Shown here piece after piece: positions 2,911 to 56,294 of a DNA stretch of 64,000 bases. Position numbers and translations under genes: made by a program. The stretch is from Octopus vulgaris (Eukaryota). Positions within the stretch are counted from its first letter, which is position 1; each line of letters begins with the position of its first letter. The stretch is from positions 19,468,001 through 19,532,000 of the forward strand of contig OX597823.1 in NCBI GenBank assembly GCA_951406725.2, written 5' to 3'. The notes below the pieces were generated by a model. It did not search any database, was not told the DNA's origin, and worked only from the letters and a program-made list of their open reading frames with translations.

Positions 2911-3210
2911 TAGTGCTACTCAAAGTGGTGGTCTGTGGACCAGAGCCGGTCTGTGGACCAGTGCCGGTCTGTGGATCAGCACCAGTCTGTGGACCAGCAC
3001 CGGTCTGTGGACCAGCGCCAGTCTGTGGACCAGCACCGGTCTGTGGACAAGCGCTGGTCTGTGGACCAGCACCGGTCTGTTGACCAGCGCCAGTCTGTGG
3101 ACCAGCACCGGTCTGTTGACCAGCGCCAGTCTGTGGACCAGCACCGGTCTGTGGACAAGCACCGGTCTGTGGACAAGCGCCGGTCAGTGAACCAGCGCCG
3201 GTCTGCAAGC
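2911..3210 (+). repeat. 18-bp minisatellite (about 15 copies) expanded within a hAT/Charlie-like terminus
   Basis: Unit GGTCTGTGGACCAGCACC from 2930 to about 3205, preceded by TAGTGCTACTCAAAGTGG, which resembles the 5' ends of MER5-type hAT elements. Confidence 0.85.
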
Positions 3211-3391
3211 TATCAGCTGCCGGTACACAGCAAGTTTCCAGCAAAGAAAGAAACATTATAAAATGCTTATATAATGGTTATGTAATATTGTATTATTTGT
3301 TTACAAAAATAAATATAAGATAAAATTGTCAACTTTTATTATATTTGTTATATATATTGTTTCCAGTAATGAATTAATATAGCTAAGAAAT

Positions 3392-3830
3392 AAGGTGGTG
3401 AGCTGGCAGAAATGTTAGCACACCGGGCAAAATATTTAGCAGTATTTCGTCTGTCTTTACATTCTGAGTTTGAATTCCGCCAAGGTCGACTTTGCTTTTA
3501 TCCTTTCGGGGTCAATAAATTAAGTAACAGTTGTGTACTGGGGTCAATCTAATCGACTGGCCCCATCCCCCAAAATTTTGGGCCTTGTGCCTACTATAGA
3601 AAGGAATATATTAAGGCGGTGAAGTGGCAGAAACATTAGCACACCGGGCGAAATGTTTAGCAGTATTTCGTCTGCCTTTATGTTCTGAGTTCAAATTCCG
3701 CTGAGGTTGCCTTTGTCTTTCATCTTTTCGGGGTCAATAAATTAAGTACCAGTTGTGTACTGAGGTCAATCTAATCGATCAGCCCCTACCCCGAAATTTC
3801 AGGTCTTGTGCCTAGAGTAGAAAAGAATAT
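3392..3830 (+). mobile_element. Two head-to-tail Nin-like SINE copies
   Basis: Units at about 3392-3610 and 3614-3830, each with a GG(T/C)GGTGA..TGGCAGAA head. Confidence 0.85.
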
Positions 3831-16105: not shown

Positions 16106-16704
16106 AGCAGTGAGCTGGCAGAAACGTTAGCACGCCAGGCGAAATGCTTACTGGTATTTCGTCTACATACTGAGTTCAAATTCCGCCGAGGTCCACTTTC
16201 CCTTTCATCCTTTCGGGGTTGATTAAATAAGTACCAGTTACACACTGGGGTCAATATAATCAACTTAATCCTGTTTGTCTGTCCTTGTTTGTCCCCTCTA
16301 TGTTTTAGCCCCTTGTGGGTAATAAAGAAATAGGTATTTCGTCTGCCGCTACATTCTGAGTTCAAATTCCGCCGAAGTCGACTTTGCCTTTCATCCTTTC
16401 GGGGTCAATAAATTAAGTACCAGTTACACACTGGGGTCGATATAACCGACTTAATCCTGTTTGTCTGTCCTTGTTTGTCCCCTCTATGTTTTAGCCCCTT
16501 GTGGGTAGTAAAGAAATAGGTATTTCATCTGCCGCTACATTCTGAGTTCAAATTCTGCCAAGGTTGACTTTGCCTTTCATCCTTTCGGGGTCAATAAATT
16601 AAGTACCAGTTACACACTGGGGTCGATATAATCAACTTAATCCCATTTGTCTGCCCTTGTTTGTCCCCTCTGTGTGTTGGCCCCTGTGGGCAGTAAAGAA
16701 ATAG
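16106..16704 (+). mobile_element. Nin-like SINE with triplicated body, nested in a family A SINE
   Basis: One head plus three units of about 180-187 bp. 14-bp TSD GAAACTGTG(A/T)GAAA at 16092-16105 and 16705-16718. Confidence 0.85.
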
Positions 16705-18980
16705 GAAACTGTGTGAAACCCAGCCAGGATAATTGTTTTTTTTCTTCTTTTTTTTAGTGATACACTTAATCTGCCACTTTGTTTAATGCCACCATCTATT
16801 TCAATGGGTATCTTTAGCAGAGATCATTCTGTTGCAAATATCTGAGCCATGTCTTCATTCATAGTAAAACTTTCTCCAAGATCCTAAACAATATCACATG
16901 AGCCCCATGTCCCCCTTTTGATAAAGTCATTAAAAGAAACCAAAAACAATAACGATGGTTTAACAAACAATTCAACAAAGGTTGGGAAGTGTTGCCTGTT
17001 GTTTAGCCCCAGGTCAGCTTAACTAAGCTGATCAATGGTCAAGTTTATGTTCCACCCAAGACCAAACCATTTTTTTTGCTCTGCTATAGTATATCTAGAA
17101 CTACATTATCCAATGTGTTCATCCTGACAAAAGGGTAATGTGATTTGAGGAAGATTTGACTGCTATTTCTTGCAGATCAGGTGTCCATGTCGAGGCTCTC
17201 ATTAACAAAGATCGGAAAGTGTTGTCAGTTGTTTCGCTCCAGGTCAGCTTAACTCGGCTGATCTACCTAGTATATCTAGGAATACATTATCGAATGTGTT
17301 CACCTTGCAAAAGGGTAATGCGATTTGAGGGAGATTTGACTGCTATTTCTTGCAGGTCGGGTGACCATGTTGAGGCTCTCGTTAACTTCTTGACTGGAAG
17401 TGTGTGCTGGTGTGACAAGGGGTTGTAAAAACAGAACAAAAAAAACAAAAAAAGTGGGGGTTAAAAAAAGCTATTACATACAAGAACCAGCCTGCTACCC
17501 CCTTATCCAAAGAAAATGGACTGAGTTTGCAATAGAGACAAAGGCAACATCCTGTCCCAGCAGGATGAAAAAGTTTCCCTCTCCACCAATCAACACCTTA
17601 AGGAATTTTTCCACCACACCCAACACCCTCTCACTACTATTACATCATTCTTCAGGTCTCTGATTTATTTAAACTATTAGGGATGGAGAAGGCCATGCTA
17701 CAACACCTGTTTTTGTTGTTATTTTTTTTTTTTTTTGCTATTTTGTCAGGTTTTTTTAATTATTTTGTTTTAGGGTGGAGGACTGTTTGTTAACTGTTAA
17801 AAAATGTTTATAAAGAACTATTTGTATGTTGGGTATTTTTGGTGTTTTACAAGGGCCATGGTTGACAAAGAATGACATTCCAGAGGTAGGGAAGGAGGGT
17901 TCCATTCTGGAGAAAGAATGGAAAAATTGTGAGGAGGTGGAAGAGGTGGGGGTGACGAAACAAAGTACTTAGTAACGAAGAGAAACTGTCTTTTGTTGCG
18001 TAAAATACCAATCTGTCGCCATAGTAGTGTTGCTGTGCTGTTTGGATCAATTTCCACCGGGGGGGGGGTCATATACACACCCACCCATGCAAGAAATTGA
18101 ACATTATCTTTAACCTCCTCCTCTCCCTGGCCCCCCTGCCTCACCACTGCAACAGAAAACTAACAAAGATGGCAGAGGAGGGGGGGTGATGATGAGGCAG
18201 AAGAGGGAAGGAGAGAATGGGATAGAAGATCCCCCTTGGAACTTAAAGAACCTTACCATTTACAAGAGATTGAAGTCCAGAGTAGGAAAAGAAGTGGAGG
18301 GGTCCCATCTACTCATTATCCCCCACACTATCTTGAATTCTATTACATCAAGCTATTTCTGTTCACACACACACAAAATATCCCAGATAAGACTTCTAAT
18401 GGAAACATGGGTGGTGGTGAAGGGGGGAGGGAGAGAACATCCCCCCCACCGCCACCCTGTCCACACCACGGTGAAAGAGAATGTTGTTTAATCTGTCAGC
18501 TCCACGCACCACCCTTCCATCCATCAACTTCTTCCACAGCTTTCCGCACCCCACTCCACGCAGGGCGATCCCCCCCTCCTCCTCTTCCAACCCAACCCCG
18601 TCCCAACCCCTACCTCTATACCTCATCATGTCGACCATTTAATGGTGAACTTGATACATGTGAAGCTGAAACTAGCAGAGAGTTTAGCTAATTGTGCCTA
18701 GCCAGGAACAAAAACAGCAAAAAAAAAAAGCAAAGAAAAAAAATTGACACAAAGTTTTAGGCATTTAGAAGTGTGTGTGTGTGTGCGTGCGTATGTGTGA
18801 GTGAGAGAGAGAGAGACCATGTGTGCAACAGGCTATTTGTATATACTTAGGTGAATGTCTGTATATAATGGGATATTAGTGAAATAGCCTCTGTGTTGGG
18901 TGTGTGTGTTTATACACAGGCAGAGAGAGAAAGAGAGAGAGGAAAAGAGAGAGTGATATCTATATATGTATATTTTTTTT

Positions 18981-33189: not shown

Positions 33190-33660
33190 TGTGTGAACGA
33201 TGTACCACACGCCAGGTGTTGAAGTGAGGTGAACGATGTACCACACGTGAGGTGTTGAAGTGAGGTGCACGATGTACCACACGTCAGGTGTTGAAGTGAG
33301 GTGCACGATGTACCCCATGTCAGGTGTTGAAGTCAGGTGCATGATGCACCACACGTCAGGTGTTGAAGTGAGGTGCACGATGTACCACACGCCAGGTGTT
33401 GAAGTGAGGTGCACGATGTGCCACACGTCAGGTGTTGAAGTGAGGAGCACGATGTACCACACGTCAGGTGTTGAAGTGAGGAGCACGATGTACCACATGT
33501 CAGGTGTTGAAGTGAGGTGCACGATGTACCACACGTCAGGTGTTGAAGTGAGGTGCACGATGTACCACACGTCAGGTGTTGAATTGAGGTGCACGATGTA
33601 CCACACTTCAGGTGTTGAAGTGAGGAGCACGATATACCACACGTCAGGTATTGAAGTGAT
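33190..33660. repeat. 36-bp minisatellite (about 13 copies) inside a SINE
   Basis: Unit GTGAGGTGCACGATGTACCACACGTCAGGTGTTGAA, continuing into SINE sequence homologous to 28635-28790. Confidence 0.9.
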
Positions 33661-45307: not shown

Positions 45308-45753
45308 TACGTATATATACATACACTCATACATGCATAAAAATAATGATGCAGATAAACACACTTGGGTTTAATATATAAAATGTATATTCATACATAC
45401 TTATACACATGTAAATATATATGGGGGGTATATATAGTGAAAAAATAACTGAAGATATTCAGAGGATGAACACTCATGTATAAGCAGAGATGTTTATATA
45501 TTTACAAAGCAAATTTACATGGTGCACAAAAATTACAGAAAACAGTAAAGTTTATACACTTCCTCTACTGGTTGCACATCCTTGACTTTTTGCATGCTCC
45601 ATCTGTCAATTCTGGACATTACAACTATTACATAATCCCCAGCCCCCGCGAAACAGCTGTCGGACTTGAAATACCATACCCTTCTCCCTTAGTTTTCTGT
45701 ATTTTATGTATGCCATGTAAATTTGCATGCATATATATATGTATGTATATAAA

Positions 45754-45790
<37 letters not shown>

Positions 45791-45791
<1 letters not shown>

Positions 45792-46308
45792 TAACATAAG
45801 GGACTAAAGCCATCTGAATATGGCTAGGGACAGGGCAGGGTGGTGGGGGTGTTACTGTTGCATTTAGCCCCAGGCGAACATCGACGTCGCTAGATAGGCC
45901 CGACACCGTCACGGTGTCCTTTAACCTGCAAAGGGAGATAATTCCCCGATGAAGCGGAAACCACACACGGACCATGGTTTCAAGGTGTATTGCCTATCGT
46001 CAACGTGTGGTAGGCTTCCGCTTCCTCGACGAATTCTCACTCTGCAGGATATTCATATATAGATTTTCAAGCAAAATACATTTGCTGATTTCGAAAATCT
46101 GTTCGACAGCAATAATTCTCTAAAAGAGATATAGACAGTAACTGCTCGATAACATAAGGGACTAAAGCCATCTGAATATGGCTAGGGACAGGGCAGGGTG
46201 GTGGGGGTGTTACTGTTGCATTTAGCCCCAGGCGAACATCGACGTCGCTAGATAGGCCCGACACCGTCACGGTGTCCTTTAACCTGCAAAGGGAGATAAT
46301 TCCCCGAT
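45791..46308 (-). mobile_element. Candidate retrozyme insertion: 1.45 tandem copies of a 358-nt structured unit carrying a type I hammerhead
   Basis: Identical 160-bp direct repeats at 45791-45950 and 46149-46308 (period 358). CpG-rich relative to the flanks, many hairpins, hammerhead motif on the minus strand, next to a (TA)n tract. Confidence 0.7.
45960..46011 (-). ncRNA. Type I hammerhead ribozyme (C3U core variant)
   Basis: Minus strand: stem I CACACG, core UUGACGA, U-AGG-CAAUACA-CCU-U (stem II), GAAA, palindromic stem III ACCAUGGU, predicted cleavage GUC^ between 45970 and 45969, then CGUGUG closing stem I. Stem I extends through GAAGCGGAA/UUCCGCUUC. Confidence 0.7.
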
Positions 46309-46384
46309 ATAATGATAAATCTCAGAGCGAGTTATGGCAAATATGCGTCACTATATATATATATGTATGTATATAAACTAAATA

Positions 46385-46465
46385 TATATATATATATACA
46401 TATAAAAGCATGTATGTATATAATATACATATATATATATATATATAAAAGCATGTATGTATATA

Positions 46466-46509
<44 letters not shown>

Positions 46510-46602
46510 ATAATATACATATATATATATATATATATAAAAGCATGTATGTATATAATATACATATATATATATATATATATAAAAGCATGTATATATA
46601 TA

Positions 46603-46635
<33 letters not shown>

Positions 46636-46835
46636 AGCATGTATGTATATAATATACATATATATATATATATATAAAAGCATGTATGTATATAATATAC
46701 ATATATATATATATATATATATAAAAGCATGTATGTATATAATATACATATATATATATATAAAATGTATGTATATAATATACACATATATATATATATA
46801 AGCATGTATGTATATAATATACATATATATATATA
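46385..46835. repeat. Higher-order repeat: (AAAGCATGTATGTATATAATATACA(TA)n) x about 10
   Basis: Fixed motif separated by variable (TA)n tracts. Confidence 0.85.
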
Positions 46836-46879
46836 TAGATATATATATATATATACATGTATGTATATATACAAATAAA

Positions 46880-46911
<32 letters not shown>

Positions 46912-47191
46912 CACTTACATATACATACATATATATTATATAGATATATATGTATGTACCAATATATTACGCACACACATATTCAATATAAGGTTGAGGG
47001 AAAAAATGATTTTGCTGCTGAAAAATGAAAATATAATTACCAAAACACTCACGCACACACAAAAGAAGCGAAATGTACACTGTACATTTTGTATGTTTGT
47101 ATAGATCATTTTTCAACAGACAAAAAAATTATATAAAATTACACACATACACACACAAATAAGTGAAGACACATTACCAAGAGTCAAATAT

Positions 47192-55298: not shown

Positions 55299-55745
55299 GC
55301 TTCACTTTTGTCACAAGGCCAGAATTTTAGGGGTGAGGGCTAAGCCAGACACATCACCTGGGATCACTACTCAACTGGTATTTATTTTAACAAAAAAAAA
55401 AAAAAAAAAAAAAAGGATGAAAATACCAAGTCAACTCTGGCAGGATTTGAACTCAAAATGTAAAGACTCACAACAAATACCACTAGCCATTCTTGTGTGT
55501 GTGTGCGTATACCTAGAAACCAGGATTAGCAAACCCTTGCCTGGATAATTCCTGAGTAACTTGCATTCATCTTTGGGTTGGATCAGGTGGAAGACAAACA
55601 ACTAAAAGCTTAGAGTGGTACCAGATGTCCTAAGTGGGCTGGTCACATGGCCAGTCATGTGACCTCAAGTGCTAGTTATTCCTATCGATCAAGAACAACA
55701 AGACACCACATCATTTCTCATTCCATTCCACCCTGTATCCATTAA

Positions 55746-56294
55746 CCCCTTCGTTACCAATCCAGCTGAAACCAGCTCTGACTCCGAGTACAAATGTCTT
55801 GTTTTCATAAGTTTTGAATTAAAATCTTCTACCAAACCTTAGTCACAATTTATGTTCCTAACACTAGCTGAATGATTAAGTTATTTTAATAAATTCTTTG
55901 TTATATTTAACCCTTTCGTTACCAACCCGGCTGAAACCGGCTCTGGCTGTGAGTACAAATGTCTTGTTTTCATAAGTTTGGAATTAAAATCTTTCACCAA
56001 ACCTTAGTCACAATTTATATTCCTAACACTAGCTGAATGATAACTAAGTTATTTTAATAAATTCTTTGTTATATTTAACCCTTTCGTTACCAACCCGGCT
56101 GAAACCGGCTCTGGCTGTGAATACAAGTGTCTTGTTTTCATAAGTTTTTAATTAAAATCTTCCACAATTAGTCACAATTTATGTTCCTAACACTAGCTGA
56201 ATGGTAACTAAGTTATTTTAATAAATTCTTTGTTATATTTAAAGTAATTGAAAGAAACACAGAGCATCTTAACAGAAATACAGTAACGAAAGGA
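55746..56294 (+). mobile_element. piggyBac-type MITE with its 5' 165-168 bp triplicated in tandem
   Basis: Units start at 55746, 55911 and 56079, each after TTAA. Only one right end. Confidence 0.85.

Follow-up and report, generated by a model that had tools for sequence, protein, structure and literature searches.

A hammerhead-bearing tandem repeat family in Octopus vulgaris with the insertion footprint of Penelope-like elements

We have analysed a 64,000-nt stretch of Octopus vulgaris DNA (contig OX597823.1, hereafter the window) and found that it holds one copy of a young, multi-copy family of hammerhead-bearing repeats. We are highly confident that the repeat unit is non-autonomous and mobilised by Penelope-like elements (PLEs), as its copies end at two fixed sites, are joined as inverted arms and sit in (TA)n targets. 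The template of this mobilisation was probably a circular monomer RNA, and the two statements taken together, a PLE-mobilised repeat copied from a circle, also have a good, if slightly smaller, chance of being right. Judged from its sequence, the family would be an animal non-LTR retrozyme within an old clan of related families: the unit is tandem and non-coding with a GC content of 46%, has a type I hammerhead fold and pairs extensively with itself, although its catalytic core is non-canonical.

The window copy is a single 5'-truncated arm on the minus strand, and the coordinates of its parts are collected in Table 1. As described in an earlier note on this DNA, its two 160-nt direct repeats are 100% identical and spaced by 358 nt, the unit is CpG-rich (observed/expected 0.94 compared with 0.43 for the whole window), and it is non-coding. 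No stop-to-stop frame of at least 100 aa spans it; its left part is overlapped by two frames, of 109 and 121 aa, and a third, of 125 aa, begins within the final 9 bases. The length of 1.45 units, which had been read as a sign of a circle, is no such sign on its own, as a 5'-truncated copy of any tandem transcript looks alike. Because only one hammerhead is present, the window copy could release no monomer. The 43-nt piece lying 5' of the arm is similar in its 3' half to the region of tail and site B in an older sister family of the L073 type, and it may be the stump of an older insertion or the result of a template switch.

Table 1: Features of the window copy and its surroundings (window positions; paired segments are given in minus-strand order).
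Feature	Position	Strand	Remarks
Repeat-family insertion, single arm	45791..46308	-	518 nt = 1.45 units; 5'-truncated; 3' end = fixed site A
3' copy of 160-nt repeat	45791..45950	-	last base 45791 = site A, 1-2 bases ambiguous versus TA run
5' copy of 160-nt repeat	46149..46308	-	identical to 3' copy
Type I hammerhead	45964..46009	-	letters in place; covariation across related families; activity predicted
Hammerhead stem I	46009-46004 with 45969-45964	-	window copy
Hammerhead core UUGACGA	46003-45997	-	window copy
Hammerhead stem II	45996-45982	-	U-U at its base
Hammerhead GAAA	45981-45978	-	window copy
Hammerhead palindromic stem III	45977-45972	-	window copy
Predicted hammerhead cut	between 45970 and 45969	-	after GUC
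Stem I extension	45951..46024 (46024-46016 with 45959-45951)	-	part of long rod
Tail, site A to site B	46108..46148	-	41 nt here, 3-nt deletion versus the family's 44 nt; site B ~46108
Conserved helix enclosing site A	46135..46216 (46216-46209 with 46142-46135)	-	covariation, 11 clan sequences
Hairpin enclosed by site A helix	46183-46166	-	window copy
(TA)n target microsatellite	45731..45793	.	abuts site A
43-nt piece 5' of arm	46309..46351	-	unique in genome
TA-rich simple repeat, far side of insertion	46352..46958	.	target-site duplication unreadable in (TA)n

Further tandem repeats are present in the window, which contains no tRNA gene over its 64 kb. Those at 3391-3830 and 16163-16705 (units of 221 and 186 nt in 2.0 and 2.9 copies) share a common dispersed-repeat sequence, which looks SINE-like. 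A 165-nt repeat at 55742-56242 (3 copies, 92%) could be another mobile insertion of more than one unit, and shorter units make up the repeats at 33193-33659 (36 nt, 13 copies) and 2930-3205 (18 nt, 15 copies).

In the genome searched (2.8 Gb in 227 contigs) a 16-nt segment of the ribozyme core has 1,409 exact matches against 1 for a control, which rules out a single-copy sequence. A similarity search with the unit gave 202 matches from the best 40 of 1,395 candidates, the full-unit copies being mostly 96-98% identical to the window unit. The family is young, multi-copy and tandemly arrayed, as had been expected, with a period of 358-361 and arrays of up to 14.7 units in one arm. The first 100 core matches fall in 35 loci, and by extrapolation the family comprises roughly 500. 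These 35 loci, all of those behind the first 100 core matches along contig 1, form our position-ordered set; 28 loci from the best matches (63 together) and then 26 more were read in addition. The fragmented locus L136 was left out of the end and haplotype counts, which therefore cover 62 loci, and L301 gave no match. Positions marked q run along the minus (hammerhead) strand of the unit from window position 46308, and family counts refer to the natural 361-nt unit from L002 with the cut after q342, site A at q160 and site B at q204.

The ends of the copies carry the main evidence. Circularly permuted endpoints had been predicted, but variation is confined to the 5' ends: of 114 arm ends (62 loci), 112 have their 3' end at or near one of two fixed sites, A (60 ends) and B (52 ends), which lie 44 nt apart in the family, and 2 end elsewhere. 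Exactly the position equivalent to 45791 is used by 50 of the 114, all 60 site A ends falling within q144-162, and 41 of the 52 site B ends are exact as well. Most of the loci read consist of two 5'-truncated arms, inverted and joined head to head, and a single A-ended arm like the window copy occurs at 6 of the 35 position-ordered loci. The two arms almost always use different sites, with A+B pairing in 26 of 27 two-armed position-ordered loci (P 2e-7 if the sites were chosen independently), in 49 of 52 two-armed loci among the 63 and in 13 of 13 among the 26 further loci (62/65 overall). A+A was seen once and B+B never among two-armed loci, L012 being scored as not A+B even though inspection places its outer end at B. 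A (TA)n run follows 108 of 111 arm ends compared with 6% of window positions. At the inner junctions the arms are flush or overlap by at most 13 nt in 22 of 27 cases, and in the position-ordered set the inner 5' ends are enriched in the tail (17/61, 7.4 expected, P 8e-4) and depleted in q205-295 (4, 15.4 expected, P 2e-4), both regions having been chosen post hoc.

An inverted 5'-truncated copy with a tail of 30-40 bp on one of the inverted repeats is a hallmark of PLEs (PMC8557442, PMC3846280), and for the anole PLE the tail corresponds in vitro to the interval between two internal start sites of reverse transcription, the protein cutting and extending both target strands (PMC11167929). Two 3' ends 44 nt apart, inverted arms with the tail on one of them and a (TA)n target are what we find here, and the suggestion of the earlier note that a Penelope-like reverse transcriptase is the likely mobiliser is therefore supported by the two-site tail, the A+B arms and the target. 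Endonuclease-bearing PLEs such as Poseidon PAc (PMC11167929), Adineta Penelope (PMC3846280), Neptune and Naiad (PMC8557442) likewise have 5'-truncated arms inverted head to head, with a tail on one of them; their targets are AT-rich or (TA)n, and their hammerhead is of type I and has a palindromic stem III. The octopus unit differs from them by the lack of a frame for reverse transcriptase (RT) and GIY-YIG endonuclease, by up to 15 units per arm and by its tail of 44 nt. The Chlamys MRC1-like elements are also non-autonomous PLE derivatives, with pseudo-LTRs (pLTRs) and multicopy head-to-tail insertions, but they come from green algae, and their 3' ends are generally similar to that of the autonomous partner (PMC8557442). 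By analogy to the anole PLE (PMC11167929), the helix around site A is a candidate structure for binding of the reverse transcriptase and for initiation.

The letters of a type I hammerhead are in place on the minus strand as claimed, including the stem I extension, and covariation across related families is seen in the stems as well as in the 3-8 core pair. The 86-nt hammerhead region folds at z -5.1 with 0/200 shuffles as good, and self-pairing of the whole unit was confirmed in linear mode (z -5.1, 0/100 shuffles as good) and in circular mode (z -5.3, with -4.4 for the opposite strand; 40 shuffles). The minimum-energy fold keeps stem I and pairs the catalytic core into a rod-like, inactive form, and Rfam gave no hammerhead match at E<=1 over 4 kb nor at E<=10 over the element, where only simple-repeat microRNA noise was returned. 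As Rfam is without a match and the lowest-energy fold hides the core, the hammerhead call rests on covariation. Among 14 motifs from related families 10 of 14 pairs have changed on both sides, which 1 of 500 shuffles reaches, and 89.6% of the cells pair in the alignment compared with 17-49% in slid controls; as 12 of the 14 rows came from a filter demanding at least 4 pairs in stem I and a motif resembling the core (L246 was picked by eye and the window row was the query), this count leans towards structure and is somewhat overstated. The 3-8 pair is U-A in 6 motifs, C-G in 5, U-G in 2 and another combination in 1. Stem III changes from CCAUGG to CCUAGG in an older subfamily and reads CUGCAG, CAUG or CUAG in sister families, all of them palindromes, with stems I and II compensated. 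Of the other helices proposed, ACAGUAAC/GUUACUGU does not form in the fold of the single sequence, but the alignment does predict it, with both sides changed at 6 of 8 pairs (11 clan sequences). The stem I rod would hold both ends of a cleaved monomer together and might in this way assist ligation.

The core of the young family deviates from the canonical one. C3 together with U4C is found at 47 of 61 loci and the U3-G8 core (C3U) at 14 of 61, among them the window copy; C3U is a subfamily state and no private defect of this copy, in which U3-G8 forms a wobble pair only. A canonical core with the flanks of the young family has no match genome-wide, a few being expected from mutation alone by a rough estimate; canonical and U3-A8 cores do occur in sister families. 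U3-A8 is a described variant of PLE hammerheads (PMC4209133), and U4C is compatible with infectivity of a viroid even though it "considerably decreases activity in vitro" (PMC3088659). The ribozyme of the young family may be weak. The hammerhead of the anole PLE cut only with the protein present and was dispensable for insertion (PMC11167929), and PLEs with an N-terminal endonuclease are described as being without canonical hammerheads (PMC8557442). Near the predicted cut (q340-348) 7 of 112 5' ends were found where 2.8 were expected, a mild excess (P 0.02, partly biased set), and junctions at the cut site gave 7 and 1 genome-wide matches against roughly 1-2 expected each, 2 of the 7 having been inspected. 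More type I hammerhead-like motifs were seen at L035 (~200, two motifs set head to head, stem I of 11 bp), L170 (~3261-3293 and 3608), L065 (~358), L169 (~3881) and L171 (~3420).

The family belongs to a clan whose other members keep the ribozyme, the helix around site A and both end sites. Sister family 2 shows 72-76% identity over much of the unit, a period of 355, the same A and B ends and mostly AT-rich targets, and further relatives were found unasked at L073, L072, L172, L155, L171, L120, L119 and L011; sister units fold at z -5.9 and -4.2. Because the clan keeps the helix around site A with changes on both sides, the unit has long been propagated and selected as RNA. An apparent rule for an extra G in family 2 (15/18 B ends, 2/26 A ends) turned out to be an artefact of locus choice, the form of this motif without the extra G having 872 exact matches genome-wide compared with 20. 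At L312 (G000:C4:13617000-13626500) an 11-unit family 2 array alternates between 2-3 haplotypes in a partly dimeric pattern, which may come from a dimeric template, template switching or later exchange.

Which template was copied can be approached through the uniformity of the arrays. Differences per site amount to 0.6% within arms, 0.85% between the arms of a locus and 3.2% between loci, and 1,360 of 1,392 locus-by-column cells are monomorphic, where independent draws would leave ~649 polymorphic. In one insertion of 14.7 + 8.4 units (23-unit), 15 of 21 periods are identical over both arms. An own variant is fixed in every unit at 8 of 62 loci, on both arms in 5 of them, "private" being judged against 62 of ~500 loci only. 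Repeated copying of one monomer would explain such uniform arrays most simply, and it is this that makes a circular template probable in our view. The main competitor, to which we give a clearly smaller yet appreciable chance, is PLE-driven insertion from linear multi-unit read-through transcripts, or from linear monomers with jumps of the enzyme, in which the hammerhead would be weak or incidental and circles would play no part. It fits with the non-canonical hammerheads of all young-family copies, with uncleaved RNA being the dominant substrate of the anole PLE (PMC11167929) and with the multicopy head-to-tail PLE derivatives of Chlamys (MRC1), which are known without circles having been shown in the available text (PMC8557442). 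Mosaic arrays exist as well, L312 being one of them: the L071 array (G000:C14:72706500-72710750) is made of three haplotypes with switches inside units, and L137 holds one foreign unit. Moreover, the long arrays L110 and L141 share one identical period, so that one of the two could have been copied from a long source by linear read-through. However, linear copying only shortens arrays, yet 30 haplotypes among 62 loci occur in uniform arrays, some with their own variants on both arms; therefore a bottleneck of one unit, with amplification afterwards, has occurred repeatedly. Jumps from end to end should leave scars at the cut site, which 25 of 61 arms cross at least twice, and 0 indels were found in 192 passes; the stems of the ribozyme are also under selection across the clan. 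With regard to L071 itself, a locus-specific haplotype present on both arms is mixed with two common family haplotypes, and two of the switches fall within one 12-nt interval.

We also asked if the copies could be solo pLTRs, meaning the 5'-truncated ends of an autonomous PLE not found, which we regard as very unlikely. Tail, inverted arms and hammerhead are indeed as in pLTRs, PLE copies are mostly truncated (PMC8557442), and ~90 of some 500 loci have been read. Against this, arms reach 14.7 head-to-tail units without coding sequence, and helices I and II of the octopus hammerhead are of canonical size, unlike the minimal pLTR hammerheads with their long stem II (PMC4209133). A PLE protein profile scan found no unit joined to an RT/GIY-YIG frame in 63 loci, so that in this sample the copies do not look like an ordinary pseudo-LTR flanking a Penelope ORF despite their fixed 3' ends. 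PLE fragments are present at 5 of the 63 loci, all outside the 3' ends and none at single-arm loci; at L113, the only one of these inspected, the fragment belongs to a separate PLE family in the same TA run. A loose end in run X1 that looked like a pLTR-to-ORF junction proved to lead to sister family 2.

Candidate enzymes are present in the genome. Neptune-type PLEs encode RT, a CxxC linker and GIY-YIG, the 781-aa frame being intact in many of them, and copies of this 781-aa family, too, have two end sites in (TA)n, ~40 nt from each other. The pLTR hammerheads of the genome have UU and CC cores, too. None of the pLTRs sampled matches the unit (BLAST) or the clan (two profiles) over 32 wide PLE loci, a sample based on scoring the best 150 of 6,136 GIY-YIG candidates and fetching 46 of 148 matches, in which Neptune-type elements were covered. 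Naiads also favour (TA)n in Octopus (PMC8557442), and comparison of three clan motifs with the sequences available in that paper gave a single 10-letter match in a squid Naiad, which is at chance level. One young Neptune-type family (L062-L072, e.g. L065:1244-6460) has pLTR copies that are 99-100% identical and an upstream overlapping frame of up to 479 aa without a convincing Pfam match; PLEs are usually described with one frame. A second young PLE family (L073:2821-5983, L113:4425-8001; 99.5-99.7% between copies) has inverted arms, a tail of ~30 nt on one of them and a hammerhead with a U4C-type core, and it shares a TA run with a retrozyme arm at L113 and L178. By eye only, a short CTC...GAG hairpin followed by TATTAT can be seen near the tail in the 781-aa family and the clan alike, a likeness to which we give no weight. 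A protein homologue search with the Neptune-type PLE returned Neptune-like proteins only, without context. Several of these homologues (P0030, P0041, P0056, P0061, P0075, P0104 and P0108) are labelled as bacterial gill symbionts of bivalves and are likely host DNA in those assemblies.

A further possibility is that single units were inserted and the arrays grew in place by unequal crossing-over, the route of Li, Clavereau and Pollet 2026 (10.64898/2026.07.22.740005). We give it hardly any weight: the mosaics L071 and L312 could reflect later exchange, but both inverted arms share a haplotype with locus-specific variants included, the arrays stop precisely at A and B while their starts are scattered, and the units differ by ~0.6% only, mostly through singletons. 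An assembly artefact that doubled a single-copy sequence, as the identical repeats and the simple repeats on both flanks might suggest, can be practically dismissed, since the same arrangement occurs at many loci with different haplotypes and the unit-end-to-unit-start join is present in contigs of 4/4 sequencing runs.

The unit was also found in sequencing runs, 14 of the 24 listed being guessed as RNA by the tool; among the runs listed, none recorded as RNA contains it. Of three RNA-guessed runs examined, two have a closed one-unit contig and the third has several haplotypes. In X1 and X5, both RNA-guessed and coming from two studies with two organism labels, the unit plus 30 letters forms one closed contig each (391 and 390 nt, one haplotype each), compared with 652 contigs in X16. 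These closed contigs are a hint only of circular RNA, because a long tandem transcript or DNA in the run gives the same picture. The high depth of X16 over 46110-46227 could not be attributed to close relatives, for which 2,478 exact and 3,821 two-mismatch matches are insufficient; sister families may account for it.

Non-LTR retrozymes of animals are known from coral, mussel and axolotl, where cleavage and circles have been shown (Cervera and de la Pena 2020, PMC7229834), and the octopus unit itself is known from its sequence. Like the octopus family, those retrozymes have a non-coding tandem unit of 150-450 bp (350-390 bp in Mytilus) with GC below 50%, one type I hammerhead per unit, strong self-pairing and thousands of copies, and the U-U at the base of stem II is common to the octopus unit and axolotl HHR_Amex2. 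The octopus family differs in that its core is non-canonical in all young-family copies read, and the two inverted arms with fixed A and B ends in (TA)n are without description in the text available for PMC7229834. A retrozyme of the plant LTR type, defined by a type III hammerhead in LTRs, a primer-binding site, a polypurine tract and a 4-bp target duplication, is ruled out by the type I fold and the tandem and inverted arms, the two features on which this was judged. A PLE origin of non-LTR retrozymes has been proposed earlier (PMC7229834), and Li et al. 2026 consider such repeats as non-autonomous PLE sequences on the basis of co-occurrence and pLTR homology in frogs, favouring a later satellite-type expansion; of 9 frog retrozymes predicted, 8 showed no cleavage in their hands (10.64898/2026.07.22.740005). 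Compared with that work, the evidence from octopus is an insertion footprint, no pLTR homologue was found in the PLE loci sampled, and the arrays look as if made at insertion; the words "tail", "head-to-head", "target site" and "octopus" have 0 uses in its main text. In the open-access literature searched we found no report of a cephalopod retrozyme, the supplement of PMC7229834 possibly listing cephalopods, and none of a tail footprint on retrozymes. Thus, the retrozyme class is known, and the genomic evidence of its mobilisation by PLEs is unusually direct here.

For the copying of a circle by a PLE enzyme we suggest the following model. Arrays of at least two units would be transcribed, of which the sequencing runs give a weak hint. 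Their hammerheads, probably weak, dimeric and assisted by protein, are predicted to cut after GUC and to release 360-nt monomers, which a host ligase might close as for the retrozymes of mussel, coral and axolotl. A PLE RT-endonuclease, probably as a dimer on one RNA, would then bind the conserved structure around the tail, as the footprint suggests, nick both strands of the TA run and prime cDNA synthesis at the internal sites A and B, one per side. Each cDNA would cover 0.2 to 15 units and the two would be joined head to head, which is the outcome seen in the genome: two inverted arms of one haplotype and sometimes, as in the window copy, only one arm fixed.

According to a review from 2020, the repeats of animal retrozymes lack a conserved motif from which the partner could be deduced (PMC7761336), and the mobilisation mechanism was left to be elucidated in the preprint of 2026 (10.64898/2026.07.22.740005). 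The octopus family supplies such a motif and a footprint, namely two start sites in a covarying RNA structure, strict A+B pairing and uniform multi-unit arms. As the start site showed no difference between strands in vitro (PMC11167929), the strict A+B pairing is a constraint on how PLEs insert generally, too. More tentatively, and with somewhat less than an even chance in our estimate, the clan could be an old and diversified group of viroid-sized circular RNA replicons, each insertion being one circle primed twice by a dimeric PLE enzyme, at A and B on the two opposite strands of a TA run, and copied for up to 15 turns, with a ribozyme kept deliberately weak so that the circles last, its core shifting among C-G, U-A, U-G and U4C states. 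If this is true, retrozyme circles would be tied to a PLE enzyme by a direct genomic footprint for the first time in the literature searched. As the genome combines hundreds of young insertions, nearly free of mutations, with intact candidate enzymes, the question of enzyme and template is directly testable in octopus.
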